Below are positions 13 to 31,236 of a stretch of DNA of 32,000 nucleotides, piece after piece (positions within the stretch are counted from its first letter, which is position 1; the number at the start of each line of letters is the position of its first letter). Source of the stretch: an uncultured Pelagibacteraceae bacterium (GTDB taxonomy: Bacteria > Pseudomonadota > Alphaproteobacteria > Pelagibacterales > Pelagibacteraceae); assembly GCA_902541285.1 (NCBI GenBank), contig CACBQD010000006.1:1-32000 (forward strand), written 5' to 3'. Made by a program: the position numbers and the translations under genes. The notes beneath the pieces were generated by a model. The model worked only from the letters and a program-made list of their open reading frames with translations. It was not told the DNA's origin and searched no databases.

Positions 13-1206
13 GTGATACTTAAAATTAATAAAAAAATTAATGTGATTGTAGGAAAAAAAAAAATTTCTGAAAAAGTCCATAAAATTTTTGATCAAAAAA
101 TCATAAATTTTTTAGATTATATATCTCAAGAAATATTTAAGGATAAGAAAAATTTTGAATTTAAAGATTTAGTAACTTTTGCGTTTTGGATTAGAAAAAA
201 AAATATTTTAAAAATTTCACTACAATATAATTTAAAAAATAAAATGTTAGGAAATGGCATCGTTTTTCACTTGTCACCTTCAAACATACCTATGAATTTT
301 GCGTATTCATTGGTTTTTGGATTGCTATCTGGAAATAACAATATCCTTAGACTTCCATCAAAAAAATTCATTCAAACCGAGATACTATGTAATATTTTAA
401 ATAGATCTTTAAAAAAAAAAAAATTCATTTTTTTACAAAATAAAATTTGTCTAATAAGATATGAAAAATCTGACGAAATATCACAGTATTTTTCAAAAAT
501 TGCAGATGCAAGATTAATATGGGGAGGGGATAACACCATTACTCAATTTAAAAAATTTTATACGTCTCCAGGCTGTGTCGATATAACCTTTCCTGATAGA
601 TATTCATTAGCAATTTTGGGAAGTGAGAAAATTATAAATTCAAGTAATTCAGAACTTAATAGGGTTGTAGAAAAATTTTATAATGACTCTTATATAATGG
701 ATCAAAAAGGTTGTTCATCACCTCAAGCAATAGTTTGGTTCGGAAAAAAAAAAAATGAGGCAAAAATAAAATTTTACAAATTTTTTTCGAAAATAATCGA
801 CAAAAAATTTGAATATGATCTAGCAATCACTAATGAAAAAATATCAAATTTATCTGTAATTGCAGCTAGATCAAAAATAAGATTTAAATCACAGTTTGAA
901 AAATTTAATTTAGTAAAAATAAAACTTAAAGAATTTAATACGGAAATAGAAAAAATTAGACCATACAACGGTTCATTTGTAGAAATAGATTTAAAAAAAA
1001 TGGGCGATATAAAAAAAATAATTTCAAAAAAATGTCAGACGATTAGTTTTTTTGGGTTAGATAAAGAGATGATAAACAGATCTATATTAGAAACTGGAGC
1101 TTTGGGAGTTTATAGAATAGTTCCAATAGGAAGATCTTTAGATATGAGTTTTGTTTGGGATGGAAAGGATCTAATTTATTCGCTCTCAAGAATTGTTGCT
1201 GATTAA
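13..1206 (+). CDS. LuxC-family acyl-CoA/acyl-thioester reductase (aldehyde-forming); 5' end uncertain
   Basis: 397-aa ORF. It has LuxC-like hallmarks VFHLSPSNIPMNFAYSLVFGLLSGNNNILRLPSK and a Cys-containing MDQKGCSSPQ. The GTG at 13 is preceded by an SD-like AAGAGGA (2-8), but the frame has no stop back to nt 1, so the gene could begin upstream of the window. Its stop overlaps the next start by 1 nt (TAATG). Confidence 0.6.
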   Translation: MILKINKKINVIVGKKKISEKVHKIFDQKIINFLDYISQEIFKDKKNFEFKDLVTFAFWIRKKNILKISLQYNLKNKMLGNGIVFHLSPSNIPMNFAYSLVFGLLSGNNNILRLPSKKFIQTEILCNILNRSLKKKKFIFLQNKICLIRYEKSDEISQYFSKIADARLIWGGDNTITQFKKFYTSPGCVDITFPDRYSLAILGSEKIINSSNSELNRVVEKFYNDSYIMDQKGCSSPQAIVWFGKKKNEAKIKFYKFFSKIIDKKFEYDLAITNEKISNLSVIAARSKIRFKSQFEKFNLVKIKLKEFNTEIEKIRPYNGSFVEIDLKKMGDIKKIISKKCQTISFFGLDKEMINRSILETGALGVYRIVPIGRSLDMSFVWDGKDLIYSLSRIVAD

Positions 1207-1652
1207 TGAAGAAAATCTATAAAAAATCTCAAATAAAAAATATTTTGAAAATTAATGATCCATTTTTAATGATTGATAAGATAAAAGTAATCCAGATGAA
1301 TAAAATCGCTGAGGGTGAAAAAAAAATAAAAAAAAAAGAATGGTTTTTTAAATCACATTTTTTTAATAATGATCCAGTTATGCCAGGTACTTTGCTAACA
1401 GAAGCAATGCTTCAAACAACTATAGTTAACCTTTATAAAGAAAATAAAAAAATAAAAAAATATTTCATTGTAAAATGTGAAAGCAATTATTTTTTTAAAA
1501 TATCTAAACCATGCACTATTAAAATAATTTCAAAAATAATCTCAAATAAACATGGAGTAATAATTGCAAAAAATTCAGTTTTTTTAAAAGATAAAATAAT
1601 TTCAAACGGTAAATTTAAATATATTGATCCAACAGCATTTAATTTAAACTAA
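1206..1652 (+). CDS. FabZ/FabA-like hotdog-fold 3-hydroxyacyl-thioester dehydratase
   Basis: 148 aa. SHFFNNDPVMPGTLLTEAMLQT matches the FabZ active-site block (HFPxxPVMPGVLxxEAxAQ). It is translationally coupled to the upstream gene. Confidence 0.65.
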   Translation: MKKIYKKSQIKNILKINDPFLMIDKIKVIQMNKIAEGEKKIKKKEWFFKSHFFNNDPVMPGTLLTEAMLQTTIVNLYKENKKIKKYFIVKCESNYFFKISKPCTIKIISKIISNKHGVIIAKNSVFLKDKIISNGKFKYIDPTAFNLN

Positions 1653-1655
1653 ATT

Positions 1656-2663
1656 ATGAAAGATTATAAAAATTTAGAATTATCATCAAAATCTTTAGTT
1701 ATTATAAAGAAAAAAAATACATATACTTATTCACTAAAAAAGTTAATTTTAAAAAATTTGAAAAAAGATGAAGTAATTATTAAAGTAGAATTTAATTCTT
1801 TTAATTATAAAGATATACTAATTGGTAAAGGAAACCCAGGTTTAGTAAGGTCATATCCACATGTACCAGGTATAGATTGCACAGGTAAAATATATTATTC
1901 AAATTCAAAAAAATTTAAATTTGGCGATAAAGTAATGGTTATTGCAAGGCCAGTAGGAATTAATTCTTTTGGAACAATGTCAAATTATTTTGTCGTTTCC
2001 TCTAAATTTGTAGAAAAAATACCTTCAAACATAAATATTAAACTGCCTGTTGTTTTTGGAACAGCTGGATTTACAGCAATGATTGCAATAAATGAGTTAA
2101 AAAATCTAAAAATAAATAAAAAATATCCAATTTTAATTACAGGTGCATCAGGAGGTGTCGGTTTATTTTCAACATTTATTTTAAATAAACTTGGTTATAA
2201 AATTACTGCAGCCACAACAAATATAAAAAAAAATAAAAAAAAATTAAAATTAGTGGGTGCAAATGAGATTATAAATTATGAAGAATTTGATAAAGCCATC
2301 AATCTACCACTATTAAAAAAAAAATACGGCGCAATAATAGATAATTTGGGAGGTAGCATACTTGCAAATAGTATAAAAACTTTACATTTAAACGGCGCTT
2401 TAATTTCAATTGGAAATATTAGAAGCAATCATTCAATAATAAATATTCTTCCTTTCATATTAAGACAAGTAAGAATAGTAGGTATAAATGCTGAAAGTGC
2501 AAATCTTGCAATTAGAAAGAAAATTTGGAAAAATATTTTTAGATATAACAATGATAAAAATTTAATTAATTTATACACTGAATATAAATTTAGTTTGTCC
2601 TCAAAAATTTTTAAAAAACTATTAAAAAATAATTATTCTGGAAGAGTAATTTTTAAAATTTAG
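1656..2663 (+). CDS. YhdH/AcuI-subfamily medium-chain NADPH-dependent enoyl (acrylyl)-CoA-type reductase
   Basis: 335 aa and collinear with E. coli YhdH as I recall it: FNSFNYKD, HVPGIDCTGK, GTAGFTAM, ITGASGGVG, KLGYKITA, LPFILRQVRIVGINA and a C-terminal GRVIFKI. Confidence 0.75.
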   Translation: MKDYKNLELSSKSLVIIKKKNTYTYSLKKLILKNLKKDEVIIKVEFNSFNYKDILIGKGNPGLVRSYPHVPGIDCTGKIYYSNSKKFKFGDKVMVIARPVGINSFGTMSNYFVVSSKFVEKIPSNINIKLPVVFGTAGFTAMIAINELKNLKINKKYPILITGASGGVGLFSTFILNKLGYKITAATTNIKKNKKKLKLVGANEIINYEEFDKAINLPLLKKKYGAIIDNLGGSILANSIKTLHLNGALISIGNIRSNHSIINILPFILRQVRIVGINAESANLAIRKKIWKNIFRYNNDKNLINLYTEYKFSLSSKIFKKLLKNNYSGRVIFKI

Positions 2664-4444: not shown

Positions 4445-5494
4445 ATGTTGTTAAATACAAAATTTTGGAAAAACAAAAAAGTTTTAATTACTGGCTGTAC
4501 TGGTTTCAGCGGATCATGGCTGATAATTTTTTTAAATATTTTGAGGTCTAGAGTTATTGGATACTCTCTTTCACCACCTTCTAAACCCAATCTTTTTAAT
4601 GTGCTAGGCTTAAAAAATAATATTCGTTTACATAATGGAGACATTAATAATTACAATAACTTAAAAAAAATAATCTATAAAGAAAAACCTGATATTATTT
4701 TTCATTTAGCGGCAAATGCTATTGTATTAGATTGTCATCGAAACCCGATTAAAACTTATAAAACAAATTCATTTGGAGTTTTGAATCTTTTAGAAATATT
4801 AAGACATTACAAAAAAAAAATTACAGTTAATATAATTACATCAGATAAATGCTACACAAATAAACAAAAAAAAAATGCATTATTTAATGAAGAAAGTTCA
4901 TTAGGTGGAGATGATGTTTACAGTGCATCAAAGGCTGTTGCTGAAATAATGGTTAATTCTTATCAAAAATACTTTTCTAATAATATTAAAATTTCAACAA
5001 TACGTAGTGGTAATATAATTGGAGGTGGTGATTGGGGAAAATACAGATTAATCACAGATATTGTTCTTTCTAAGTATAAAAATAAAAAATTTAATATTAG
5101 AAATTTAAATGCAATTAGACCATGGCAACATGTATATGATGTCATTCATGCATATTTATTAATTGCTCAATATACTTATATGACAAATAAATTTCAAAAT
5201 TGGAATGTTGCGCCAAATAATACCAGAATTTCAGTTAAAAAAATATGTTCTTTCTTTTTAAAAAAAAAAGAGTTTAAAATTAAATCTAAATATAAAAATA
5301 ATATAGAAAAAAAATTTTTATTACTTAATAGTAAAAAAATTAGAAAAATTATTAAGTGGAAACCATCTTTCTCGTATAAAGAAATGATGTACGACATTGA
5401 AAAATGGTACCATCTTTATTATAATTCAAAAAACATAAAGCAGCATAGTTATGATACTGCCAAATTATTTTTGAAAAGTATAAAGCTTAAATGA
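4445..5494 (+). CDS. rfbG: CDP-glucose 4,6-dehydratase
   Basis: 349 aa. The N-terminus FWKNKKVLITGCTGFSGSWL is typical of RfbG/DdhB. It has the SDR catalytic YSASK and a PWQHV block. Its stop overlaps the next start (ATGA). Confidence 0.8.
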   Translation: MLLNTKFWKNKKVLITGCTGFSGSWLIIFLNILRSRVIGYSLSPPSKPNLFNVLGLKNNIRLHNGDINNYNNLKKIIYKEKPDIIFHLAANAIVLDCHRNPIKTYKTNSFGVLNLLEILRHYKKKITVNIITSDKCYTNKQKKNALFNEESSLGGDDVYSASKAVAEIMVNSYQKYFSNNIKISTIRSGNIIGGGDWGKYRLITDIVLSKYKNKKFNIRNLNAIRPWQHVYDVIHAYLLIAQYTYMTNKFQNWNVAPNNTRISVKKICSFFLKKKEFKIKSKYKNNIEKKFLLLNSKKIRKIIKWKPSFSYKEMMYDIEKWYHLYYNSKNIKQHSYDTAKLFLKSIKLK

Positions 5495-6237
5495 ATCAAA
5501 ATAATTATAATCAAAATAAAGAATTATTTTTTAAAAAAGGTTACTTTGTAGTTAGAAGTGTAATTAAAAAAAGTACAATTAAAAAATTATTGGTAGAGAT
5601 TTATAAAGCAAAAAATACTGATAAATATACTGACACCAGGGGCAACCTTAGAAGAATTGAAAGACTTTACAACAAAGGTAAAACTTTAAGTGATTTAAAT
5701 CATAAAATCTTATTAATATTAAAAAGAGTTTTTGCAGAAAAATTTGTAATTTTCAAAGATAAATTTAATGCAAAGCCACCAGGTGGTGATGGATTTTATG
5801 CTCATTTTGACGGAGTATTTAAATTTACTAACCAAAAAAATGAAAAAAAAAACGGATGGTATGAGTATACTGATTTTTTTGTAAATTGTTTAATTGCACT
5901 CGATAAATGCAACAAGCGTAATGGATCTATTGAACTTTCAAATTTTCATAAAGGTAGTTTTGAAGATTTATTTAAAAAAACAAAAATGGATGGAACTCCA
6001 GCTTTAAGTGAAAAGACTTTAAAAAAGACAAAGTTTAATCTTATTAATTTAAATGAGGGAGATATGGTTTTTTTTTCAAATAAATGTCCTCATCAGTCCA
6101 AAAAAAATAATACAAATCATAGCAGAAGAATTCTTTACTACACCTATACAAAACTAAAAGACAAATCAAAATATTCACAATATTATAAAGATAAAATAAG
6201 AAGTAAAAATAAACTTAAAGCTTTAGAAGAGAAATAG
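5491..6237 (+). CDS. Phytanoyl-CoA dioxygenase (PhyH)-family Fe(II)/2-oxoglutarate-dependent dioxygenase
   Basis: 248 aa. It has an HxD iron motif (YAHFDG), a distal His (KCPHQS) and a downstream Arg pair (HSRRILYYTY), as in PhyH-type 2OG oxygenases. It shows ATGA coupling to rfbG. Confidence 0.65.
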   Translation: MNQNNYNQNKELFFKKGYFVVRSVIKKSTIKKLLVEIYKAKNTDKYTDTRGNLRRIERLYNKGKTLSDLNHKILLILKRVFAEKFVIFKDKFNAKPPGGDGFYAHFDGVFKFTNQKNEKKNGWYEYTDFFVNCLIALDKCNKRNGSIELSNFHKGSFEDLFKKTKMDGTPALSEKTLKKTKFNLINLNEGDMVFFSNKCPHQSKKNNTNHSRRILYYTYTKLKDKSKYSQYYKDKIRSKNKLKALEEK

Positions 6238-6323
6238 TTTTAAATTTAATTAAAATTTACTTTATTACTGTCAAAAATTTATTATTTTGTATTTATCCAA
6301 TAAATAAATTAAAAACTTAGATA
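6238..6323 (+). promoter_or_regulatory. Possible internal promoter ahead of the pepM-ppd-adh unit
   Basis: An 86-bp gap sits inside an otherwise overlapping or abutting co-directional block. It is the only sizeable spacer upstream of pepM. Confidence 0.25.
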
Positions 6324-7625
6324 ATGAAAAAAAAAACTGTATATGTTGGTTTAGCTGCTGATATTCTCCATAAAGGACATATTAATATTCTTAAAACTGC
6401 CAATAGATATGGAAATGTTATTGTTGGACTTTTGACAGATCAGGCAATTGCAAGTTACAAAAATATTCCTTACTTAAATTATGAAAAAAGGAAAGTTGTA
6501 ATAGAAAATATTAGATATGTAAAAAAAGTAATACCTCAGGATACATTAGATTACATATATAATTTAAAATTAATAAAACCTGATTATGTGGTTCACGGAG
6601 ATGATTGGAAAACAGGTGTTCAAAAAAAAACAAGAGAAAGAGTAATAAAAACATTAAAAAAATGGTCTGGCAAACTAATAGAACCAAAATATACAAAAAA
6701 TATATCATCTACTTTAATCAAGAAAGAAATGAACAATTTAATTTATTCACCAGAAAATAGAGTTTCAAGATTAAAAAGATTGATTAATTCAAAAGAAATT
6801 GTAAGAATTTTAGAGTCTCATAATTCTCTTACCGGATTAATTATTGATAAAATTAATGTTGAAAAAAATAAAAAGGTTGTTGAATTTGATGGAATGTGGT
6901 CATCAAGTTTGACTGACTCTGCAACTAAAGGTCTTCCTGATAATTCCTCACTATCATTTTCTGCTCGGATTGCATCTTTAAACGATATGATGGATGTAAC
7001 AGCTAAACCACTAGTTTTTGACGCAGATAATGGTGGCCAGATAGAACATTTACCATTTTTAGTTAGATCTTTAGAGAGATCAGGGGCATCTGCAATTATT
7101 ATGGAGGATAAAGTAGGTCTTAAAAAAAATTCACTATTCAAAGATCAATCTGGGGCTAAACAAGATAAACCACAACTTTTTGCAAAAAAAATTAAAAAAA
7201 TTTGTAACTCAAGACAGTCACAAGATTTTATGGTTATAGCTAGAATTGAAAGTTTTATAGTGGGTAAAAGTCTAAAAGATGCTTTACACAGGGCAGAAAT
7301 TTACTCAAAAGCTGGAGCAGATGCTATTTTAATACACAGTAAGGAAAAAACACCTGCTCAAATTTTTTCATTTGCTAAAGAATTTAAAAAAAGTAAGAAT
7401 TTTAAACCTTTAGTTTCTGTTCCATCTACATATTCAAAAGTTTATGAAAAAGATTTAATAAAAAATGGCTTTAAATTAGTTATCTATGCCAATCAATTAT
7501 TAAGAGCTGCTTATCCCGCTATGCAAAATACAGCACGAACCATATTAAAAAATAAAAGAGCTTTCGAAGCTGATAAAAAAATTATTTCAATTAAAGAAAT
7601 AATTAATTTAGTTAAAAATGATTAA
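6324..7625 (+). CDS. pepM: Bifunctional HxGH-type cytidylyltransferase / phosphoenolpyruvate phosphomutase
   Basis: 433 aa. Residues 1 to about 135 carry VYVGLAADILHKGHINIL, RYVKKVI and VVHGDDW, as in TagD/ECT/CCT-class cytidylyltransferases. Residues from about 150 to 433 carry ESHNSLTGL, FDGMWSSSLTDSATKGLPD, DADNGGQ and EDKVGLKKNS. The last is an exact EDKX5NS PEP-mutase discriminator. Confidence 0.85.
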   Translation: MKKKTVYVGLAADILHKGHINILKTANRYGNVIVGLLTDQAIASYKNIPYLNYEKRKVVIENIRYVKKVIPQDTLDYIYNLKLIKPDYVVHGDDWKTGVQKKTRERVIKTLKKWSGKLIEPKYTKNISSTLIKKEMNNLIYSPENRVSRLKRLINSKEIVRILESHNSLTGLIIDKINVEKNKKVVEFDGMWSSSLTDSATKGLPDNSSLSFSARIASLNDMMDVTAKPLVFDADNGGQIEHLPFLVRSLERSGASAIIMEDKVGLKKNSLFKDQSGAKQDKPQLFAKKIKKICNSRQSQDFMVIARIESFIVGKSLKDALHRAEIYSKAGADAILIHSKEKTPAQIFSFAKEFKKSKNFKPLVSVPSTYSKVYEKDLIKNGFKLVIYANQLLRAAYPAMQNTARTILKNKRAFEADKKIISIKEIINLVKND

Positions 7626-8718
7626 AGTTACTACTTTAATTAATTTATTAAAAAAAAATGGTATAGATTTTTATACTGGAGTCCCAGACAGTATTTTAAA
7701 GGAACTTTCTTTTTCACTGCAAAGTAAAAATAAAAAAAAACATATTATTGCAACAAATGAAGGCTCAGCCGTCTCAATTGGTATTGGCCATTATCTATCT
7801 ACAAAAAAATTACCTGCTATTTACATGCAAAATTCTGGTTTATCTAATGCTTTAAACCCATTAATCTCAATAGCTCATAAAAAAGTATATTCCATTCCAT
7901 TAATTTTAATAATTGGATGGAGAGGCTCTCCACGAATTAAAGATGAACCTCAACATAATGTAAAAGGTAAAATTACTAAACAAATTTTAAAACTACTTAA
8001 TATAAAATATACCGTTTTACGATCAACTTCTGATTTAAATAAATTTCACAAACAAATTAAAGTAGCGAAAAAAGATAAATCCATAGTAGCTTGCTTAATA
8101 GAGCAGGGCACTCTTGAAAAAAATAAAAAAATTAAAGCAAAAAAGAATTTTTATAATTTAGACAAAGAGTTTTTTTTAAAAAATTTATTAAAGAATATAA
8201 AAAATCAAACAAAGATTATTTCTAGTACAGGATATAATTCAAGAGAATTAATGTATATAAAGGATAAATATAAATTCAAAAATAGTAAAGATTTTTATAT
8301 GGTTGGTGGCATGGGGCATACTTCTTCTGTAGCTCTTGGATATTCTCTGTTCAACAAAAAAAAAATTATTTGTATAGATGGTGACGGATCACTTATAATG
8401 CATTTAGGTTCAATAAAAACAGCAGGAACTTTTGCAAATAAAAATTTTAAATATATTTTGTTAAATAATAATACTCATGATTCTGTGGGTGGCCAAAGCA
8501 CTTACACAAATAATATTGATTTTGAAAAACTTTCGAAAAGTTTAGGATTTAAAAAATTTCATTCTATAAAAAGTAAAAAAAATTTAAATCAAAATATTAA
8601 AAAATTTCTGTACGAAAAAAATTTAGGTTTTTTAGAGGTACAAGTCTCTAAAAGTAAAATAAAAAAACTTCCTAGACCAACAGATTTGATTAAAATAAAA
8701 AATGAATTTATGAGTTAA
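7618..8718 (+). CDS. ppd: Phosphonopyruvate decarboxylase (ThDP-dependent)
   Basis: 366 aa. The N-terminus (GIDFYTGVPDS) is typical of Ppd/sulfopyruvate-decarboxylase-like enzymes. The ThDP motif is GDG-X25-NN (GDGSLIMH...ILLNNNTHDSVGGQ). An 8-nt overlap (ATGATTAA) links it to pepM. Confidence 0.8.
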   Translation: MIKVTTLINLLKKNGIDFYTGVPDSILKELSFSLQSKNKKKHIIATNEGSAVSIGIGHYLSTKKLPAIYMQNSGLSNALNPLISIAHKKVYSIPLILIIGWRGSPRIKDEPQHNVKGKITKQILKLLNIKYTVLRSTSDLNKFHKQIKVAKKDKSIVACLIEQGTLEKNKKIKAKKNFYNLDKEFFLKNLLKNIKNQTKIISSTGYNSRELMYIKDKYKFKNSKDFYMVGGMGHTSSVALGYSLFNKKKIICIDGDGSLIMHLGSIKTAGTFANKNFKYILLNNNTHDSVGGQSTYTNNIDFEKLSKSLGFKKFHSIKSKKNLNQNIKKFLYEKNLGFLEVQVSKSKIKKLPRPTDLIKIKNEFMS

Positions 8719-9822
8719 ATGATCAATTCTATTGAGGATATAAAAAAATTCATTAACGACAAAAAACATAAAAAAATATTTGTTTTGTGTGGAAAAAAAT
8801 CTTATGAAACCTCTGGTGCAAAAGAACTTTTTAAAGCAATGCTTTCTGAGAAAGAAATTAATATTTTTTACAAAAAATCCGAATTACCTATTCTTAAAGA
8901 ACTGATAGAAATTATTATAAATGTAAAAAATTTTAAACCAGATTTAATTTTAGCAGTTGGTGGTGGGGCGATTATTGATTATGCTAAAATAGCAAATGTC
9001 GTCGATGTAAGACCTGATCTTGCAGAACTAATAAAAAATTATGTATATCCATTTAAAAAAAAATATACAAAACTAGCAGTAATCCCAACTACTGCAGGAT
9101 CTGGAGCTGAGGTTACTTCAAATGCAGTAATTTATGTAGATGGAATTAAACATTCTTTTGAAAGTGAGTTATTAATACCAGATAATTTTTTTTTAATCCC
9201 AGAATTTTTAATTTCTGCACCAAAAAAAATTAAAGCATCAGCCGGGTTTGATGCTATCGCACAAGCTTTAGAATCATTGATTTCAAAAAAATCAAATTCT
9301 AAAAGTGTCGAATATGCAACAAAATCCTTAGAAATCTCAACGAAGAGTTTTATATCATTTTTAGACAATCCAAATAAAATAAACGCTACTGAAATGAGTA
9401 TAGCATCTAATTTGGCAGGAAAGGCGATTAGCATATCTAAAACAACTGCTCCACATGCAACATCATATCCATTTACATCTTTATTTCAAATTAGCCACGG
9501 TCATGCAGTAAGTCTTTTTTTTGAAAATTTTTTTAAATTTAATTTTGATAATTTAGAAAGATCAGAAACAAAATTTGACTTAAAAAAAAGGTTTGATTTA
9601 ATTTTCAGAATTTTTGAAGTAAAAAATATTGAAAATTTTACATCAAAAATTTCATCAATAAAAAAAAAAGCAAATCTTGAAGATAATTTGCTCAATTTAA
9701 ATATTAATTTAAAAAATAATTCTGAAGAAATAATAAAAGGCATAAATTTATTAAGATTAGGAAATAATCCAATAAAAATAGATGGAAAAGATATCTATGA
9801 CATAATTAAAAAAAATAATTAG
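8719..9822 (+). CDS. Group III iron-containing alcohol dehydrogenase, probable phosphonoacetaldehyde reductase (forms 2-hydroxyethylphosphonate)
   Basis: 367 aa. It has GGGAIIDYAK (the GGGSxxD nucleotide motif), PTTAGSGAEVT and His-rich metal motifs (APHATSYPF, SHGHAVS). It starts on the base after the ppd stop. Confidence 0.7.
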   Translation: MINSIEDIKKFINDKKHKKIFVLCGKKSYETSGAKELFKAMLSEKEINIFYKKSELPILKELIEIIINVKNFKPDLILAVGGGAIIDYAKIANVVDVRPDLAELIKNYVYPFKKKYTKLAVIPTTAGSGAEVTSNAVIYVDGIKHSFESELLIPDNFFLIPEFLISAPKKIKASAGFDAIAQALESLISKKSNSKSVEYATKSLEISTKSFISFLDNPNKINATEMSIASNLAGKAISISKTTAPHATSYPFTSLFQISHGHAVSLFFENFFKFNFDNLERSETKFDLKKRFDLIFRIFEVKNIENFTSKISSIKKKANLEDNLLNLNINLKNNSEEIIKGINLLRLGNNPIKIDGKDIYDIIKKNN

Positions 9823-9892
9823 GAGATGTCTGTAAATTTGAAATATATAAGTATAATATCTTTTAATTATTAAAAAATAAATTTTGAAATAT

Positions 9893-10672
9893 ATGAAATG
9901 TGTAATATTAGCAGGTGGACTCGGTACTAGATTATTTGAAGAGACACAAACTAAGCCTAAAGCTTTAGTAGAAGTAGGTGGCAAAACATTAATAGAGCAC
10001 ATCATAGATCAATTTTCTAAACATGGAATTAATGATTTTATTGTATGTCTCGGTTATAAGGGAAATCTTATAAAAAAATATTTTGTTGATTATTATAACA
10101 ATAATTTAGATTTTTCGATAGATTTTTCAAAAAACAAATTTTTTTTTGAAAAAAAGTTTAACAGAAAATGGAAAATAACTTTTGTAAATACAGGTCTAGA
10201 TACAGGAACCGCAGGCAGAATTAAGCTAATAAAAAATTATTTGAAAAATGAAAAATCTTTTTTTCTTACATATAGTGATGGGGTATCAAATATAAACTTA
10301 AAAAAACTCCTTAAATCCCACATTAAAAGTAAAAAAAAAGTTACAATGTGTGTGACCAGACCAAAAAATAGATATGGAATTGCTAACATAAAAAAAAACA
10401 TTCTTGTATCATTTAATGAAAAAAAAAGAGTCGATAAAAATAATAACTGGATAAATGCTGGTTTCTTCGTGTTAAATACAAATGTAATTAGTCAATTAAG
10501 TAGTGTTAAGGAATATTTTGAGGCCGAGCCACTCTCTCAACTTATAAAAAAAAATAACGTATCTATTTATAGACACAATGACTTTTGGAGATCTATTGAT
10601 ACTTTAAAAGATAAAACTGAGTTGGAAAAAATATGGAAAAAATATAAAACTTGGGATTTAAAGGGAATATAA
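9893..10672 (+). CDS. rfbF: Glucose-1-phosphate cytidylyltransferase
   Basis: MKCVILAGGLGTRLFEETQTKPKALVEVGGKTLIEHI...DFIVCLGYKG is nearly collinear with Salmonella RfbF/DdhA. I prefer the ATG at 9893 to the TTG at 9884 given in the ORF track. Confidence 0.8.
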   Translation: MKCVILAGGLGTRLFEETQTKPKALVEVGGKTLIEHIIDQFSKHGINDFIVCLGYKGNLIKKYFVDYYNNNLDFSIDFSKNKFFFEKKFNRKWKITFVNTGLDTGTAGRIKLIKNYLKNEKSFFLTYSDGVSNINLKKLLKSHIKSKKKVTMCVTRPKNRYGIANIKKNILVSFNEKKRVDKNNNWINAGFFVLNTNVISQLSSVKEYFEAEPLSQLIKKNNVSIYRHNDFWRSIDTLKDKTELEKIWKKYKTWDLKGI

Positions 10673-10677
10673 CTTTT

Positions 10678-11319
10678 TTATGACCTAAGATATGTATAAA
10701 TTAGTAAAATAAAATAATAGAGCAGAGTATAGACGCTCATCAACAGAAGATACTCCTTGTGAAGGTTTAAAATTATAAAGCATGATCCCCAAAATAACAT
10801 ATTTGTTCTTGTAAATATAAAATATTCAATTAATTTAAAAAAAGTACTCTTTCTTAAATTGTTTTGATCAAATTTAGGTAAAAAAACTATCATAGAAAAA
10901 TAAATATTATCTATACAAAATCTAAAACTAATAAAAATAAGTCCACAAATTAAAAAATAAATATTATTCTCGAATATATAATTTGAGGATATAATTGCTA
11001 AAATAAAAAAATTATCTGCAAGCCTATCTAATGTACAATCCAAATGAGCACCAAACGAAGACTGCAATTTTTTTTTAATTGCTAGATCTCCATCAGCACA
11101 ATCAAAAATAAGAGATAAATTTATTAAAATAAAACTAATTAAATTAAAATAATTATTTCCTTTAAAAATAATAAATGGCAGAGAAACAACTATTAAAAAA
11201 AATGATAAATAAGAAAGGTTATTTGGAGTTATTTTAGTATTTATTATTTTATTAACAATATATCTTGAAAAAATTCTATAAATTTTTTCTATACCTATAT
11301 CAGACCTTACCGCACTCAT
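10678..11319 (-). CDS. CDP-alcohol phosphatidyltransferase-family integral membrane transferase
   Basis: 213 aa with several hydrophobic helices. DCADGDLAIKKKLQSSFGAHLDCTLDRLAD fits D-x2-DG-x2-A(R)-x8-G-x3-D-x3-D, with Ile in place of the usual Arg. Confidence 0.75.
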   Translation of the reverse strand: MSAVRSDIGIEKIYRIFSRYIVNKIINTKITPNNLSYLSFFLIVVSLPFIIFKGNNYFNLISFILINLSLIFDCADGDLAIKKKLQSSFGAHLDCTLDRLADNFFILAIISSNYIFENNIYFLICGLIFISFRFCIDNIYFSMIVFLPKFDQNNLRKSTFFKLIEYFIFTRTNMLFWGSCFIILNLHKEYLLLMSVYTLLYYFILLIYTYLRS

Positions 11320-11339
11320 ATTTTTAATTTTTAAAAAAA

Positions 11340-12275
11340 TTATTCAATACTTTTTATAATTATTGTTTTATCAAATTTTTTTAATTGATTATAAATTTTT
11401 CCAACGTATTCTCCAATAATACCAATAAAAATACTGTTTAAAGCAAGTATTATCAGCATCAGAAAAACTAAAGTTGTAAAGCCTTGAGGACTACTAGCAG
11501 GGTCAAAAATTTTTTGAATAAAATAATAAATTAATCCTACTACAGAAAAAAAGGAAATCATTAATCCAAACAATGTAGCCATTCTTAGCGGGGCTATAGT
11601 ATGATTTGTAATATTTTTAAATGATTCCATTATATATTTAAAAAAATTAAATTTAGTCTTTCCAGCTTTTCTTTCCTCTCTTACATGCTCTATTCCATAA
11701 TTCTTAAAACCTAAAGAGTAAATAAATCCCCTTAAATAAGTGTCACGTTCATCCATAGATTTAATTATTTTGATAATTTTTTCATCAATTAACGAGAAAT
11801 CTCCAACATCATTTTTTAACTCAGAATGACTTAAAAAATTAATAGTTCTATAGAAAGCTTTTCTTAAATTTTTTATTATAAAATTTTCTTTTCTATTTTT
11901 TCTAATTCCATAAACATAATCATACCCTTCTTCCCATTTTTTTATGAATTCTTCAATCAATTCTGGAGGATCTTGTAAGTCGCAGTCTAATTGAATAGCT
12001 GCTGATCCGTTTGCTAATTTATATGCGTTTATTAATGATCTTTCTTTTCCTATATTATTTGAGAATGAAAAACATTTTACATTTTTATCAGTCAAGTTTA
12101 TTTTTTTTATAATTTCAAAACTATTATCTGAACTGTTATTATCTGTGAATATAATTTCATACTTATAAACTTTACTATATTTAACAAAAATATTTTTTAT
12201 TTTTTCATAAATTGATTTAATATTTTCTTCTTCGTTTAAGATAGGTATACAAATACTAATTATTTTTTTTTCCAT
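11340..12275 (-). CDS. GT2 polyprenyl-phosphate glycosyltransferase (ArnC/GtrB/DPM-synthase-like) with C-terminal membrane helices
   Basis: 311 aa. Motifs are ISICIPILNEEENI, IIFTDNNSSDNS, QLDCDLQDPPE, GIRKNRKE and VGDFSLID. Two C-terminal TM segments end in IGIIGEYVGKIY, which is typical of this subfamily. Confidence 0.8.
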   Translation of the reverse strand: MEKKIISICIPILNEEENIKSIYEKIKNIFVKYSKVYKYEIIFTDNNSSDNSFEIIKKINLTDKNVKCFSFSNNIGKERSLINAYKLANGSAAIQLDCDLQDPPELIEEFIKKWEEGYDYVYGIRKNRKENFIIKNLRKAFYRTINFLSHSELKNDVGDFSLIDEKIIKIIKSMDERDTYLRGFIYSLGFKNYGIEHVREERKAGKTKFNFFKYIMESFKNITNHTIAPLRMATLFGLMISFFSVVGLIYYFIQKIFDPASSPQGFTTLVFLMLIILALNSIFIGIIGEYVGKIYNQLKKFDKTIIIKSIE

Positions 12276-12319: not shown

Positions 12320-13228
12320 TTATTTTTTTCTAATCAAATATTCTATGTAAAAAAACACTCCCATTATAGCTGATGGAATACCTCTGCTTATAAAGAATAT
12401 TGAAATCAATATAATTTCCTCAGGAGACAATAATTTGCTAAAAATTAATAGGATAAAAAACTCTCTAAAACCAATACCATTATAAGTTATGGGTATAAAT
12501 CCAATTAGTGATATTAAGCTTACAAATGAAATGATTTTAAAAAATGAAAAATTATCAACTTCTAAAAATTTAACAAAAATATAGAAGTGAACAAAAGTTA
12601 AGAAAATAAATATTATATTTATAAATAAAATAACATGAAAATTTTTATTATTTTTTGTATATTTTAAAAATATTTTTCCCAATTTATATAATATGTTAAC
12701 TTTTATTAAGTTAAATAAATACTGAATATTTTTTAAAATTAAAAAATAGACCAAAACAAATAATATTGTTAAAAGTATGTAGGTTAACTTAATCTCATTT
12801 AAATAAAAAATAATGAAAATAGATAAAAAAACATAAACAGTTATCTCAAAAAACTTATCGACAATCATTATTTCTAAATTTTTTAAATAATTGATTTTAA
12901 AAAATTTCTTTAATAAATAAATTTTTTTTACTTCCCCTAATTTAAAAGGTAATATAAAATTTAAAAAACTTGAGATAAAAAATATTTTTAAAAGTTTTTG
13001 TTCTTTAATTTTTTTTCCTAAGAGTAAGGTAAATTTTTTAACATTTAGTAGTGTTTGGACTATACAAATTATATATGATGAAAAAAAAATATTATTATTT
13101 AGATTTATTAATAAAAGTTGAAATTTATCAAAATCAACTTTTTTAAGAAAAAAAAAAATTAAAATTAAGCTTATAATAAAAATAAAAAACGAAAAAAGAT
13201 TTTTTAGCGATTTAAAATAATAAAACAT
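12320..13228 (-). CDS. Polytopic membrane protein, possibly a flippase-like (LPG-synthase-TM/UPF0104-type) partner of the adjacent GT2
   Basis: 302 aa and almost entirely hydrophobic helices. The assignment rests only on size, topology and position directly downstream of the ArnC-like gene. Confidence 0.4.
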   Translation of the reverse strand: MFYYFKSLKNLFSFFIFIISLILIFFFLKKVDFDKFQLLLINLNNNIFFSSYIICIVQTLLNVKKFTLLLGKKIKEQKLLKIFFISSFLNFILPFKLGEVKKIYLLKKFFKINYLKNLEIMIVDKFFEITVYVFLSIFIIFYLNEIKLTYILLTILFVLVYFLILKNIQYLFNLIKVNILYKLGKIFLKYTKNNKNFHVILFINIIFIFLTFVHFYIFVKFLEVDNFSFFKIISFVSLISLIGFIPITYNGIGFREFFILLIFSKLLSPEEIILISIFFISRGIPSAIMGVFFYIEYLIRKK

Positions 13229-17142: not shown

Positions 17143-18020
17143 TGAAAGGTATATTGTTAGCTGGTGGAGAAGGATCAAGATTTAGACCAATTACAAATTC
17201 TATATCTAAGCATTTTCTACCCATTTTTGATAAGCCTGTAATTTATTATTCTTTATCTCTACTATTTTTAGCAAAAATAAAAGACATTTTGATTATATGT
17301 AAAGAAAATGATTTAAAAAATTTTAAAAAAATTCTAGGTAATGGAGAAAATTTTGGTATCAAGATAAGTTACAGTATTCAAAAACATCCAAATGGAATCC
17401 CAGAAGCATTTAAAATTGGAAAAGAGTTTATTGGAAAAGAAAATGTGTGTCTCACTTTAGGTGACAATTTTTTTTATGGACAAAGTTTAGCTAAAACTAT
17501 TTTAAAAGCAAAAAATACAAAATCAGGAGCAAGAATACTAGCAATTCAAGTAAACAATCCTAAAGACTTTGGCGTTATAAACTTTAGAAAAAATAAAATT
17601 ATTTCTATTGATGAAAAACCAAAAAAACCAAAGTCAAATTTTATTATTCCAGGTATGTATTTTTACGAAAACAGTGTTGTAGATTATGTAAAAAAATTAA
17701 AACCTTCGAAAAGAAATGAATTAGAAATCAGTGATATTAACAAGATTTATTTAAAAAAAAAAAAATTAAAAGCCTTTAAAATGGGAAGAGGTATTGCATG
17801 GCTTGATACAGGAACCCCTGAAAGTTTAATATCAGCAAGTAATTTCGTTTACTCAGTTGAAAAGCTACAAGGTTTTAAGATCGCATGTTTAGAAGAAATA
17901 GCTCTTAATAATAAATGGATATCAAAAAATTTTTTAATTAAAATTTTAAAAAAACAAAAAATTAATACAAGTTATTACAATTATATAAAGAAAATAATTA
18001 ATAAAAATAATCAAAAATAG
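17142..18020 (+). CDS. rfbA: Glucose-1-phosphate thymidylyltransferase
   Basis: 292 aa. MKGILLAGGEGSRFRPITNSISKHFLPIFDKPVIYYSLSLL is collinear with RmlA. It overlaps rfbB by 1 nt (TAATG). Confidence 0.85.
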   Translation: MKGILLAGGEGSRFRPITNSISKHFLPIFDKPVIYYSLSLLFLAKIKDILIICKENDLKNFKKILGNGENFGIKISYSIQKHPNGIPEAFKIGKEFIGKENVCLTLGDNFFYGQSLAKTILKAKNTKSGARILAIQVNNPKDFGVINFRKNKIISIDEKPKKPKSNFIIPGMYFYENSVVDYVKKLKPSKRNELEISDINKIYLKKKKLKAFKMGRGIAWLDTGTPESLISASNFVYSVEKLQGFKIACLEEIALNNKWISKNFLIKILKKQKINTSYYNYIKKIINKNNQK

Positions 18021-19738
18021 TGTTTGAAAATTTAAAAAAAATTAATTTTATTTTAAAAAAAAAACAAAAAGTTAGACTTTTTCTCATTTCATTTGGTGGA
18101 ATTATTTCGTCTTTTTTTGAGGTAATTGGTATAGGTTCGGTAGGACCTATTATTTTAGGAATTTTAAGTCCAAATAACTTAGAAAATTATCTTTATAAAT
18201 TTGGATTTGAAAATTTAATTTCTTCCTATGATTTAAATATTATTATTATTTTTTTTTTTATATTGTTTGTTTTAGCATTCACTTTTAGATCGGTATTCTC
18301 TTATTTTATTGCGAGTAAAATTATTAAAGAAGGTACAGAAATTCAAAAACATTTAAGATTAAGATTTATAAAAAAATTTAATTCACTTACTTTAGAAAAA
18401 ATCTCTGAAATTAAATCATCGGAGGTTTTCCATCAAATAGGACATGTGACAAGAATTTTCGCACAAAATACTGTTGTAAAAATATTTACTTTAATTTCAG
18501 ACTCATTAATTTTTATAACAATTATTTTTTTAATGTTTATTACAAGTGTAAAGTTATTCTCTTTAATAATTTTGATTTTATTGGGTAGTTATTTTTTCTA
18601 TTTTATTTTTGTTAGAAGAAAAATAGAAATTTTTGGAAGTAATTTTGGTGAAGCTGATGAAAAGTTCGTTGAATTAACTAAGCAAATGATAAATGGTTTT
18701 AAAACTTTAAAAATTTTGCAACAACAAAATAAATTCCTAAGTTATTTCGAGGAAAATAATCAAAAATCTGGAAAATCAGAGTATAATTATGAGTCTATTC
18801 TTTTATTACCAAAAGTTATTTTAGAAATAAGTTTTATTATCATAATTGCCTCAATTTTTATTTTCTCAATTATTCTAGACGGATCCATTAATCCTAATAG
18901 TGTCACATTATTAGGTGTTTTTGGTATAGCATCAGCTAGATCTATACCATTAATTTACAATATATTTAATTCAATTGGAAATATTCTTGGCTCAACATAC
19001 AGTATAAACAAAATTTACGAACAAATTAAAATTGGAGATGAGTTTTTTGACACTCAATCAAATTTTGATGGAGAAGATATTTATTTTGAAAATTTGAACT
19101 TTGTTGATGTAAATTTCAATTTTAAAAATGGAAAAAAAGTTTTTGAAAATTTTAATATTAAAATAAAAAAAAATGAATTTGTTGCAATTGTTGGTCCTTC
19201 TGGAGTTGGTAAAACCACTTTGATTGATTTATTTTGCGGATTAATAAAACCAAAAACTGGCCAAATATTAATTGGTGATAAAATTAATATTCATAAAAAT
19301 TTATATCAATGGCAAAAGAAAATATCTTATATCCCTCAACAAAATTTTATATTTAAAGGTTCTATTCTAGAAAACATTACATTTAATAAAGAATTAAAAG
19401 ACACAGATGAAAGTAAGCTTAAAATAATATTAGAACAGGTTAAACTTGATAAATTTATCCAACAAAATAATTTAAATTATGATTACATAATTAGTGAAGA
19501 TGGGAAAAATTTATCTGGTGGTCAAGCTCAGAGAATTTCATTAGCAAGATCTTTATATTTTAATAAGGAGATAATAGTGCTAGATGAAAGTCTCAACTCA
19601 TTAAATGTTGAGTTACAAGAAGAAATATTACAAGAATTTTTAAAATTAAAAAAACAAATTACATTAATTCTCATTACTCATAATAAAGATAATTTAAGAT
19701 ACTTTGATCAGATAATTAATTTAGAGGAAATTAATTAA
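18020..19738 (+). CDS. ABC exporter half-transporter (fused TMD-NBD, MsbA/PglK-like)
   Basis: 572 aa. About 6 N-terminal hydrophobic helices are followed by Walker A GPSGVGKTT, the signature LSGGQAQR and Walker B IIVLDES. The GTG start overlaps the rfbA stop (TAGTG). Confidence 0.8.
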   Translation: MFENLKKINFILKKKQKVRLFLISFGGIISSFFEVIGIGSVGPIILGILSPNNLENYLYKFGFENLISSYDLNIIIIFFFILFVLAFTFRSVFSYFIASKIIKEGTEIQKHLRLRFIKKFNSLTLEKISEIKSSEVFHQIGHVTRIFAQNTVVKIFTLISDSLIFITIIFLMFITSVKLFSLIILILLGSYFFYFIFVRRKIEIFGSNFGEADEKFVELTKQMINGFKTLKILQQQNKFLSYFEENNQKSGKSEYNYESILLLPKVILEISFIIIIASIFIFSIILDGSINPNSVTLLGVFGIASARSIPLIYNIFNSIGNILGSTYSINKIYEQIKIGDEFFDTQSNFDGEDIYFENLNFVDVNFNFKNGKKVFENFNIKIKKNEFVAIVGPSGVGKTTLIDLFCGLIKPKTGQILIGDKINIHKNLYQWQKKISYIPQQNFIFKGSILENITFNKELKDTDESKLKIILEQVKLDKFIQQNNLNYDYIISEDGKNLSGGQAQRISLARSLYFNKEIIVLDESLNSLNVELQEEILQEFLKLKKQITLILITHNKDNLRYFDQIINLEEIN

Positions 19739-25890: not shown

Positions 25891-25895
25891 TTATT

Positions 25896-29910: not shown

Positions 29911-31236
29911 ATGATTAATAATATGCTTAAAACTAATACTTATAATAAAATTACTATAATTTCTTTTTCAATATTTATTTTTTTTTTTGATTTTTTGAGA
30001 GATTATTTTGATTTTAGATTAATTATTTTCATACCTTTATTTTTAGCCTTTGTTGAGTTTATTTATTTAAAAAAAAAAATTAATTATTATTTAATTACTA
30101 TATATTTATCTTTAATATCACTATTAATTTTACAATCATTATTTCAGGAAATTAATTTTAAAGATAAAATCTATAGTTTTAAATCTATAATTTTTTTGGG
30201 GATATCTATATTTTCAATATGGTATTTTTCAGAATCTATAATTAAAAATATAAGCTTAATATTTAATTTTTTTTTAATCTTCTTTTATCTTTATATTATT
30301 TTTTATACATTTTTTAGAATTGATATGCATTTAGAAAACCACCAGTGTTATATAGGTTGTTTTTCGGTATTAAACGACAAATTTGAGTTTTTTAAAGAGA
30401 ATTCTCATCTTGGTTTTATTTCATCAACATTGATTGCTTATATGATTACTAAGGTAAAAAAAATTAATTTTTATCTTATATCTTTGATTATATTTTATAT
30501 TTTTATTATTCTGAATTTTAGTTTAACAATTTTTTTTACAATTTTTTTTATTTTTACTTATTTTATAATTTTTTACTTTAAAAAATTTAATATTATTCAA
30601 AAATTTTTAATATTTTTAATAATCGCTTCTAGTTTTTATAGTTTAAATATTAATGATGGAGCAATCGATAGATTATACAATCTAATTAAATTTGATAATT
30701 GGAAAGTAAATAATAATTTCGAATTACTTGAAGAAAATAAAAAAAATATCAATAAAGAAAATAAATTAGAAAATGTCAGTAAAAAAAATAATGAAAATAA
30801 AAAACAAAAAAAAAATCAACAAAAAAACACACAAGTAAAAAATTTGTCTAGTGAAGTATTTATAGTTTCATTAAATATAGCAAAATTATCAATATTAGAA
30901 AAGCCCTTTGGTTATGGCCTGAATAATTATCACTTAGCTTTTAAGAAAAATATTGATGATATTTCAGTCACAAATTCAATAACTAAAAGATTAAATATTT
31001 TTGATGCATCGAATAATCTGGCTAAAATGATAACAGAACTTGGAATTTTTAGCTTATTAATTTTCTTTATAATATTAAAATTTTTGTTCTCAGAAAAAAT
31101 TCCACATGAATATAAATTCATAATTTTCCCTTCTCTTTTTACCCAAATATTTATAAGGGGGGCAGGATATTTTAATGGTGGTTTTATATTTTTTTTAGTT
31201 TTAAGTTGCTATTTACTTTACAAATATAACGATTAG
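29911..31236 (+). CDS. O-antigen ligase/polymerase-like (Wzy_C-type) polytopic membrane protein
   Basis: 441 aa with multiple helices. A large hydrophilic loop is followed by EKPFGYGLNNYHLAF, which resembles the PxxGxGxxxF/Y block seen near the C-terminal part of WaaL/Wzy-family proteins. Confidence 0.45.
   Translation: MINNMLKTNTYNKITIISFSIFIFFFDFLRDYFDFRLIIFIPLFLAFVEFIYLKKKINYYLITIYLSLISLLILQSLFQEINFKDKIYSFKSIIFLGISIFSIWYFSESIIKNISLIFNFFLIFFYLYIIFYTFFRIDMHLENHQCYIGCFSVLNDKFEFFKENSHLGFISSTLIAYMITKVKKINFYLISLIIFYIFIILNFSLTIFFTIFFIFTYFIIFYFKKFNIIQKFLIFLIIASSFYSLNINDGAIDRLYNLIKFDNWKVNNNFELLEENKKNINKENKLENVSKKNNENKKQKKNQQKNTQVKNLSSEVFIVSLNIAKLSILEKPFGYGLNNYHLAFKKNIDDISVTNSITKRLNIFDASNNLAKMITELGIFSLLIFFIILKFLFSEKIPHEYKFIIFPSLFTQIFIRGAGYFNGGFIFFLVLSCYLLYKYND

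Follow-up and report, generated by a model that had tools for sequence, protein, structure and literature searches.

A SAR11 surface-glycan island operon predicted to make CMP-activated 2-hydroxyethylphosphonate for cell-envelope decoration

Background

Phosphonate biosynthesis in SAR11 bacteria has been described as a property of horizontally acquired genomic regions. The gene for phosphoenolpyruvate (PEP) mutase, pepM, was detected in 18% of SAR11 single cells, located within glycan regions acquired by horizontal transfer, and surface phosphonoglycoproteins were proposed (Acker et al. 2022, PMC8931226); in surface waters phpC reaches ~76% of the abundance of pepM and mpnS/hepD stay below 1.5%, with Pelagibacterales dominating (Lockwood et al. 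2022, PMC9381506). The two reports also describe esters of 2-hydroxyethylphosphonate (HEP) on marine polysaccharides, propose surface phosphonoglycoconjugates in SAR11 and Prochlorococcus (PMC8931226, PMC9381506), and place Wzy_C/O-antigen-ligase-like genes near pepM in SAR11 (PMC8931226). Among all ppm neighborhoods the HEP type makes up 8.5% (Li and Horsman 2022, PMC8942020). With regard to activation, the N-terminal domain of Fom1 is reported to convert HEP and cytidine triphosphate (CTP) to HEP linked to cytidine monophosphate (CMP-HEP; PMC6697681, citing Cho 2017); a PF01467 fusion is carried by 23.6% of all PEP mutases (PMC6697681), and PF01467-Ppm fusions were also noted by Li and Horsman (PMC8942020). 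Here we analyze the first 32 kb of contig CACBQD010000006.1 from an uncultured Pelagibacteraceae bacterium (this whole stretch is called the window), which contains a plus-strand operon coding for a fused cytidylyltransferase (CyTase)-PEP mutase (PepM), a phosphonopyruvate decarboxylase (Ppd) and an iron-type alcohol dehydrogenase (Fe-ADH). Judging from sequence comparisons, this operon probably makes CMP-activated HEP for decoration of the cell envelope, and we put the probability of this explanation, taken over all seven of the steps proposed below, at roughly 0.7.

The window is densely coding, with a G+C content of ~22% throughout. Its host belongs to SAR11 (Pelagibacteraceae), and the mutase shares 88% identity with its counterpart in Candidatus Pelagibacter sp. 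RS40. An exact look-up of the mutase returned no entry, and near-identical contigs were found instead via the Fe-ADH and via a PhyH-family dioxygenase encoded upstream; relatives of the mutase in marine metagenomes run into the thousands. Related loci and contigs retrieved for comparison carry the labels L001-L058, L001 being RS40. The window is a SAR11 glycan island matching the published pepM islands of SAR11 and Prochlorococcus, so that the glycan-island setting read into this DNA by its initial annotation holds, as does the SAR11 origin.

A predicted four-step route from PEP to CMP-HEP

The initial annotation had described three tightly coupled genes at the core of the operon, and its coordinates proved exact, as did the 8-nt overlap of the Ppd gene with the mutase gene and the start of the Fe-ADH gene at 8719, directly after 8718 (Table 1). 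The motifs it had quoted are likewise all present in the translations, namely ESHNSLTGL, FDGMWSSSLTDSATKGLPD, DADNGGQ and EDKX5NS (as EDKVGLKKNS) in the mutase, along with those of Ppd and the Fe-ADH. The C-terminal 285 residues of the mutase score above the cut-off of the PEP-mutase equivalog TIGR02320 (357.6 bits versus 319.55), whereas the models for the alternatives fall below theirs (phosphonopyruvate hydrolase, 152 bits with a cut-off of 374; methylisocitrate lyase, 75 with 354; carboxy-PEP mutase, 39 with 420), and a comparison with the PEP mutase in PDB entry 1m1b gave an E-value of 3.5e-46. Thus, on profile scores rather than a tree, this domain is a true PEP phosphomutase and no other member of the isocitrate lyase superfamily, as had been claimed. 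The assignments of Ppd and of the Fe-ADH as a member of its family also stand (model scores in Table 1).

The same open reading frame (ORF) contains a second domain, with PF01467 matched at residues 13-134 and PF13714, the mutase region, at residues 150-408. The best PDB match of the whole protein is the isolated CyTase domain of Fom1 (5x3d; E 1e-49, 172.9 bits), to which the N-terminal domain is 57% identical without gaps over 134 residues. It retains the motifs HKGH (HxGH) and ISST (ISTT-like), giving the protein the make-up of a Fom1-type fusion, and close relatives are named 'phosphoenolpyruvate phosphomutase / 2-hydroxyethylphosphonate cytidylyltransferase' by JGI. These similarities suggest that the N-terminal domain acts on HEP to give CMP-HEP. 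The PhyH dioxygenase, a CDP-alcohol (cytidine diphosphate-alcohol) transferase and the glycan genes listed in the initial annotation as surroundings of the cassette are indeed there, and only its separate cytidylyltransferase neighbor disappears, being this domain of the mutase ORF.

Because the mutase ORF carries the Fom1-like domain, the cassette would encode four steps from PEP to CMP-HEP, each with strong homology support. The C-terminal domain of the fusion would convert PEP to phosphonopyruvate, which Ppd would decarboxylate to phosphonoacetaldehyde, thereby pulling an unfavorable equilibrium forward; the Fe-ADH would then reduce phosphonoacetaldehyde to HEP, and the N-terminal domain of the fusion would join HEP and CTP to form CMP-HEP. 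We regard this route as highly probable. A catabolic role for the Fe-ADH, as an HEP dehydrogenase (PMC13576164), was considered and rejected, since the window encodes PepM and Ppd and has no PhnX, PhnA or PhnY.

Candidate enzymes for modification and attachment of the phosphonate

The PhyH-family protein is encoded just upstream of the fusion, and the start of its gene overlaps the stop of the preceding CDP-glucose 4,6-dehydratase gene by 4 nt. Its best curated family is the methylphosphonate hydroxylase PhnY* (NF052437; 68.8 bits, E 5e-19), the iron triad HxD...H (H105, D107, H201) and the 2-oxoglutarate-binding R212 are invariant in all homologues, an AlphaFold 2 model (pLDDT 89) has the PhyH-type fold, and several relatives are named '2-aminoethylphosphonate dioxygenase' by JGI. 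In three look-ups from homologues 57-70% identical, the gene lay directly upstream of the fused mutase in all seven places found, and the adjacency holds in an island with quite different neighbors (ManC, LicD and a diacylglycerol (DAG) kinase). As PhnY*/FzmG-type enzymes hydroxylate the alpha-carbon of phosphonates (PMC8942020), we infer that PhyH may hydroxylate C1 of the phosphonate. The odds on this reaction, which would give a 1,2-dihydroxyethylphosphonate headgroup, are in our judgment even. This dihydroxy form is also said to occur in actinomycete exopolysaccharides.

The candidate for attachment is a six-helix CDP-alcohol phosphotransferase encoded by the last gene of a minus-strand operon, whose upstream genes code for an epimerase-like protein, a PF03706 membrane protein and a family 2 glycosyltransferase (GT2) of the ArnC/PgfS type. 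A profile of its subfamily matched AF2299 with an E-value of 2.4e-21 and IPCT-DIPPS with 5e-10, and reached only ~1e-3 with the synthases of phosphatidylinositol phosphate (PIP) and phosphatidylglycerol phosphate (PGP); its AlphaFold 2 model (pLDDT 82) also matched AF2299 in Foldseek (TMq 0.73). Both AF2299 and DIPPS take soluble CDP-alcohols as donors and do not act on lipids (PMC4634129). Of the eight conserved residues in the family signature D1xxD2G1xxAR...G2xxxD3xxxD4 (PMC4634129), seven are present and invariant.

The subfamily is small, comprising 21 clusters among 5.8 billion proteins with 63-99% identity, the next proteins standing at 34%, and it is found beside the cassette (Ppd and Fe-ADH) in all five island contexts retrieved for it (L003, L048, L050-52, L053-54, L055-57). 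The GT2, which scores below the cut-offs of PgfS (NF047588, 206.9 bits) and ArnC (NF007986, 137.7 bits), is syntenic with the transferase in all island variants, and the PF03706 protein is syntenic with both in L003, L048, L050-52 and L055-57. The CDP-glucose 4,6-dehydratase gene is kept in L003, L048 and L053; in L050-52 both it and the RfbF-like gene are gone and the transferase module is kept, and since the CDP-glucose genes are missing there, CMP-HEP would be the sole locally made donor of the CDP type.

These observations make the transferase the best candidate for moving a phosphonyl alcohol from CMP to an acceptor hydroxyl, an assignment to which we give a little less than even odds, and the GT2 and flippase-like genes beside it point to a lipid-linked sugar as the acceptor. 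In the three further steps that we propose, PhyH would hydroxylate C1, probably after cytidylylation or after transfer; the transferase would take the CMP-phosphonate as donor, release CMP and form a phosphonate ester on the acceptor hydroxyl; and the co-transcribed ArnC-type GT2 and MprF-flippase-like protein would supply and flip a lipid-linked sugar, after which the PglK-like flippase and the Wzy_C-like ligase of the island would deliver the decorated glycan to a polymer or protein at the surface. The narrower proposal, that the AF2299-like subfamily has been recruited to CMP-HEP or its 1-hydroxylated form and attaches it to a lipid-linked sugar, is tentative and stands well under even odds. 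What the initial annotation had predicted, a bound HEP-derived headgroup at the surface, gains support from the Fom1-type fusion, the PhyH-pepM adjacency and the restriction of the transferase to islands with the cassette, and the attachment site of HEP is most likely a cell-surface glycan or lipid.

Several observations weigh against parts of this explanation. The Fe-ADH lies outside TIGR03405 (PsrA), the sole curated model for a phosphonate ADH (109.6 bits versus 423.7), so that its assignment rests on fold and conserved position; PhpC-type enzymes are very divergent (PMC13576164). PhyH is far under the cut-off of the PhnY* model, which is 500 bits, and its profile and Foldseek searches returned generic PhyH-fold hydroxylases only (proline hydroxylase H11, EctD, GriE), a single-sequence search of the PDB giving no match. 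The transferase lacks the canonical Arg of the signature (residue 81), leaving the full signature incomplete. Its gene runs opposite to pepM and is transcribed together with the GT2 module, the transferase occurs in none of the 35 SAR11 pepM loci of our GTDB survey (below), and its co-occurrence with the cassette could stem from the shared ancestry of one island lineage, considering the 63-99% identity. Within the subfamily, residue 81 is I, V, L, K, T or R, and a Lys two residues later is invariant. We had also taken the near-invariant R133 and R171 as possible counterparts of R153 and R191 of PIP synthase, which bind the acceptor phosphate; this was dropped, as the offsets from the catalytic Asp differ by ~25 residues and no alignment supports it. 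Other SAR11 pepM islands carry LicD-like or sulfatase-family genes in place of the transferase, and because it is missing from most SAR11 pepM loci, it would be one of several attachment solutions and not a general one.

The main alternative for the acceptor, by analogy with the uncharacterized 'Burkholderiales_CDP-OH' neighborhoods, would be a membrane lipid. The product would then be a phosphonolipid, with the transferase placing HEP or 1-hydroxy-HEP on a membrane lipid, or joining CDP-diacylglycerol to the free hydroxyl of HEP, and the MprF-flippase-like protein moving the lipid into the outer leaflet. The gene set does parallel those neighborhoods (Group 1), with PhpC for the transaminase of 2-aminoethylphosphonate (AEP; PMC8942020), the transferase scores best in NCBIfam against archaetidylinositol-phosphate and PIP synthases, the domain PF03706 is one of lipid flippases, and a DAG kinase adjoins the cassette in another island. 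However, the transferase is much nearer to the non-lipid enzymes AF2299 and DIPPS than to the CDP-DAG enzymes (E 2e-21 versus ~1e-3; PMC4634129), it shares a transcription unit with an ArnC-type GT2 inside a 30-kb glycan island, and no phosphonolipid of the Burkholderia type has ever been isolated (PMC8942020). On balance we consider a phosphonolipid unlikely.

An equally unlikely alternative is that the transferase and its GT2/flippase partners are unconnected with the phosphonate and handle another CDP-alcohol such as CDP-glycerol or a CDP-6-deoxyhexose product, CMP-HEP being moved by an unrecognized enzyme, for instance the 587-residue membrane protein encoded upstream of the operon or one whose gene lies elsewhere. 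The separate transcription unit on the opposite strand, the binding of CDP-glycerol by AF2299 (PMC4634129), the RfbF/RfbG-like genes that flank the cassette in most variants, and the need for another transferase in the majority of SAR11 pepM loci would all fit. Against this, every context found for the subfamily adjoins Ppd and Fe-ADH, the module persists in L050-52 without rfbF and rfbG, and the window has no synthase of CDP-glycerol or CDP-ribitol (TagD/TarI type) besides the Fom1-like domain.

Branch enzymes and distribution of the cassette in SAR11

Enzymes that would divert HEP or its precursor were sought among the window ORFs of at least 140 residues. Pfam scans of these found no match to aminotransferases (AEP transaminase, class V) and none to the radical-SAM (S-adenosylmethionine) and cupin families. 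Since MpnS and HepD are barely recognized by Pfam, the versions found in SAR11 itself were used as tblastn queries (MpnS, E 2e-113 to 6b9s; HepD-like, E 4e-72 to PhpD/HepD 3g7d), and neither MpnS nor HepD had a match in the window; three window ORFs without a Pfam match code for polytopic membrane proteins, not cupins. The ORFs scanned in the 32 kb also include no Fom3 radical-SAM/B12 methyltransferase, FomD, Fom4/HppE epoxidase, or kinase or exporter of the fosfomycin pathway. By these searches the window contains no branch to AEP, methylphosphonate or hydroxymethylphosphonate, in agreement with the initial annotation, and both ends of the cassette operon lie inside it.

A survey of one genome per GTDB species recovered 37 loci, 35 of them SAR11-type (L007 is labelled SAR116). 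MpnS is encoded in five of the 35 and a HepD-like protein in one, always right beside pepM, so that HEP-terminal cassettes (29/35) stand against MpnS/HepD-bearing ones (6/35); PhyH is present in seven. Among cultured SAR11 strains with the core, RS40, HIMB2201 and Uisw_092 lack PhyH and HIMB1420 has it. Of the loci that extend far enough to reveal the gene order, nearly all run CyTase-PepM, Ppd, Fe-ADH, with the Fe-ADH directly behind Ppd, and a Kiritimatiellae and an Actinophytocola genome have this arrangement too, at 25-50% identity. At L001:13609-18254 in RS40, a gap of 98 bp separates the end of the Fe-ADH gene from the 3' end of the 23S rRNA gene, whose operon runs 16S, two tRNAs, 23S on the minus strand, which puts the cassette at the edge of an rRNA-flanked hypervariable region. 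We take this to be the edge of SAR11 hypervariable region 2.

The CyTase domains differ between the two kinds of loci. In those without MpnS/HepD, the window and every PhyH locus included, they are 54-63% identical to Fom1 (162-183 bits), while in MpnS/HepD loci the values are 41-51% (122-153 bits). Compared with the window, the latter loci conserve the mutase domain as elsewhere and the CyTase not (Mann-Whitney p = 4.5e-4 for the domain-identity gap, with MpnS/HepD loci representing only ~four independent lineages). A second, stand-alone CyTase is encoded in tandem with the PepM-fused copy in four of the five MpnS loci, both copies being 41-51% identical to Fom1. This pattern fits a CyTase that follows the final phosphonate and lends indirect support to HEP as the substrate of the window's domain; it suggests that the substrate specificity of the CyTase has shifted with the end product in MpnS loci, and also that PhyH does not act before cytidylylation.

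These data bear on the possibility that HEP is only an intermediate here, with MpnS, HepD or an AEP transaminase elsewhere in the genome yielding methylphosphonate, hydroxymethylphosphonate or AEP. SAR11 does possess such genes (the MpnS and HepD/PhpD-like loci just mentioned), and the window covers 32 kb of a ~1.3-Mb genome; but where present they sit immediately beside pepM in loci with a distinctly different and, for MpnS, mostly duplicated CyTase, the operon of the window is complete at both ends, and mpnS/hepD are rare relative to phpC in surface communities (PMC9381506), all of which leaves an intermediate role quite improbable. A diffusible phosphonate such as a fosfomycin-like antibiotic is hardly credible, for although the fusion, Ppd and Fe-ADH have their counterparts in Fom1, Fom2 and FomC (PMC6697681), the remaining fosfomycin enzymes and exporter are missing from the 32 kb, the neighbors are sugar-nucleotide, glycosyltransferase and flippase genes, and the cassette belongs to a hypervariable glycan region of SAR11, where in RS40 it lies next to the 23S rRNA gene.

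Two further features of the related loci are recorded here. In ~10 of the 35 SAR11 loci a gene for a 173-residue APS-kinase-like protein (NF004041, 138.8 bits versus a cut-off of 127) lies directly upstream of the fused mutase (RS40, L001:9413-9934; also L011, L013, L016, L017, L019, L023, L033, L036 and L041); it is not found in the window, and an adenylylsulfate kinase gene has been described beside ppm-ppd in Campylobacter (PMC8942020). Ppd is split into two or three ORFs in L003:11295-12396, L047:3914-5009 and L014 (two pieces), and the mutase gene likewise in L043:8520-9816; on these contigs from metagenomes or single amplified genomes the splits could reflect frameshift sequencing errors or genuine pseudogenization of the cassette.

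Other genes of the island

The 587-residue membrane protein, whose gene adjoins PhyH in L003, L004, L043 and L050-52, has no match in Pfam, NCBIfam or the PDB, its family profile included, and none of the 62 relatives found in an HMMER scan of 1.84 billion representatives has a Pfam domain; an apparent short remnant of the gene is seen near position 8057 of L053. The RfbF-like ORF opens at a TTG, and the near-identical contig L058 uses the ATG at 9893 (259 residues); the true start is probably this ATG, nine bases downstream of the TTG.

The remaining genes are mostly of the kind expected from a glycan island, among them RmlA and RmlB (both above cut-off), a CmcI-type methyltransferase, several GT2 enzymes and many sugar-nucleotide genes. 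The FdtA-like ketoisomerase gene, beside RmlB and RmlA (16165-18020, plus strand), has no aminotransferase partner in the window ORFs, and a 97-residue plus-strand ORF overlapping it is probably spurious. The proteins of a heptose-nucleotide-like set all score under curated cut-offs. At the left end (13-2663, plus strand) lie genes for a LuxC-like acyl-CoA reductase, a FabA-like dehydratase and a Zn-dependent ADH, which in the syntenic L003:1-6338 come after genes for a split transketolase, an AMP-binding enzyme and LuxE; the set looks like an acyl-modification module for a glycan that accompanies islands of this type. Scans for promoters and terminators yielded no information in such AT-rich DNA (81 promoter-like sites versus 82.8 expected), and neither tRNAs nor Rfam families turned up in RNA searches of the window.

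Table 1. Positions of the features discussed in the window and, in the last row, in related SAR11 contigs; scores are in bits
Feature	Position	Strand	Evidence and remarks
Unclassified polytopic membrane protein, 587 aa	2668..4431	-	Often divergent from cassette; possible transferase
CDP-glucose 4,6-dehydratase (RfbG-like)	4445..5494	+	First gene of plus-strand operon; TIGR02622 331.8, cut-off 278.45
PhyH-family Fe(II)/2-oxoglutarate dioxygenase, PhnY*-like, 248 aa; proposed phosphonate C1 hydroxylase	5491..6237	+	PF05721 46.9
Bifunctional Fom1-type CyTase-PepM, 433 aa	6324..7625	+	CyTase domain ~6324-6743; PEP phosphomutase domain ~6768-7625
Phosphonopyruvate decarboxylase (Ppd), 366 aa	7618..8718	+	TIGR03297 372.8, cut-off 312.5; thiamine diphosphate (ThDP) motif GDG-X25-NN
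Group III (Fe/Zn) alcohol dehydrogenase, 367 aa; proposed PhpC/FomC/Pdh-type phosphonoacetaldehyde reductase	8719..9822	+	PF00465 90.2, PF25137 63.3; GGGAIIDYAK
Glucose-1-phosphate cytidylyltransferase-like NTP transferase (RfbF-like)	9884..10672	+	TIGR02623 277.1, just below cut-off 300.25
AF2299/DIPPS-like six-helix CDP-alcohol phosphotransferase, 213 aa; candidate CMP-phosphonate:acceptor transferase	10678..11319	-	PF01066 45.5, cut-off 22
GT2 glycosyltransferase, ArnC/PgfS/GtrB type (polyprenyl-phosphate sugar synthase-like)	11340..12275	-	PF00535 83.5
LPG_synthase_TM (MprF-flippase-like) membrane protein	12320..13228	-	PF03706 86.8
FdtA-like 3,4-ketoisomerase	15770-16147	-	PF05523 66.5; beside RmlB and RmlA
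PglK-like ABC flippase, lipid-linked oligosaccharide	18020..19738	+	NF050066 (PglK) 235.8, cut-off 1000 not reached
Heptose-nucleotide-like set	23994-26855	mixed	NTP transferase fused to GmhB-like (GmhB/HddC-like) phosphatase; GmhA-like isomerase (-); HddA-like GHMP kinase
Wzy_C/O-antigen-ligase-like membrane protein; possible PglL-type transferase	29911..31236	+	PF04932 24.7, cut-off 31.7 not reached
Tandem CyTase loci (stand-alone ORF + PepM-fused copy)	L022, L026, L028: ~9992-10390 + 10405-11703; L034: 10001-10393 + 10438-11733		

Implications

SAR11 is the most abundant candidate producer of phosphonates, and a compact gene set comprising a Fom1-type CMP-HEP synthase along with a PhnY*-like hydroxylase and a CDP-alcohol transferase that are both specific to the cassette could define both the product (HEP or dihydroxyethylphosphonate) and the enzyme attaching it. 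The ratio of 29 HEP-terminal to 6 MpnS/HepD-bearing species genomes bears on which organisms feed the pools of phosphonates that yield methane and those that yield ethylene. If the AF2299-like protein does transfer a phosphonyl alcohol from CMP, it would be the first phosphonyl transferase in the CDP-alcohol phosphotransferase family and would account for the long-sought ester-forming step, offering a genetic handle on the HEP esters of oceanic high-molecular-weight dissolved organic phosphorus.

Comparison with known systems

The fosfomycin pathway of Streptomyces wedmorensis (Fom1, Fom2, FomC) runs through the same four reactions with the same CyTase-PepM fusion, Ppd and Fe-ADH, the CyTase domain of the window being ~58% identical to the solved one of Fom1. 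It differs in having Fom3, FomD and Fom4, and the window is set in a marine alphaproteobacterial surface-glycan island; given this setting and the absence of the late fosfomycin genes, CMP-HEP is here most likely the end donor, not a transient intermediate. The methylphosphonate clusters, i.e. mpn of Nitrosopumilus maritimus and the MpnS clusters of SAR11, share nucleotidyl activation and the route to HEP through PepM, Ppd and Fe-ADH with the window, which differs from them in lacking MpnS, the CyTase of the SAR11 MpnS loci being also more divergent from Fom1.

With the 'Burkholderiales_CDP-OH' (Group 1) neighborhoods of Li and Horsman (2022, PMC8942020) the window shares a Ppm-fused CyTase, a second nucleotidyltransferase, a 2-oxoglutarate-dependent oxygenase predicted to give a 1-hydroxy phosphonate and a CDP-OH transferase. 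Those neighborhoods, however, employ an AEP transaminase and lead to 1-hydroxy-AEP, whereas the window has a PhpC-type reductase leading to HEP, an AF2299-like transferase and glycan genes; it has every element of the Group 1 phosphonolipid definition except the AEP transaminase, with Fe-ADH instead. In the exopolysaccharides of actinomycetes, an unrelated phylum, HEP is ester-linked to the polysaccharide (Stackebrandtia, Glycomyces; Yu et al. 2014, cited in PMC8942020), and by that precedent HEP can be a terminal decoration of a glycan.

The closest likeness is with the pepM islands of SAR11 and Prochlorococcus, which come from the same organism group (PMC8931226, PMC9381506) and show the same pepM-ppd-pdh/phpC core, the same hypervariable glycan regions, flippase- and O-oligosaccharyltransferase-like neighbors and a proposed surface glycoconjugate. 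The novelty that the initial annotation saw in the cassette was overstated: a pepM-ppd-phpC set lacking mpnS has been published as the form that prevails in Pelagibacterales, surface phosphonoglycoconjugates had already been proposed (PMC8931226, PMC9381506), and an HEP cassette of this kind in SAR11 is already known and no new pathway. We found no description of PhyH and CDP-alcohol transferase accessories beside an HEP cassette in the searchable portion of the literature. To the form known from SAR11 pepM islands the window adds a PhnY*-like dioxygenase and an AF2299-like transferase with GT2 and flippase-like partners, and the tight and exclusive link of these two enzymes to the HEP cassette may be new.

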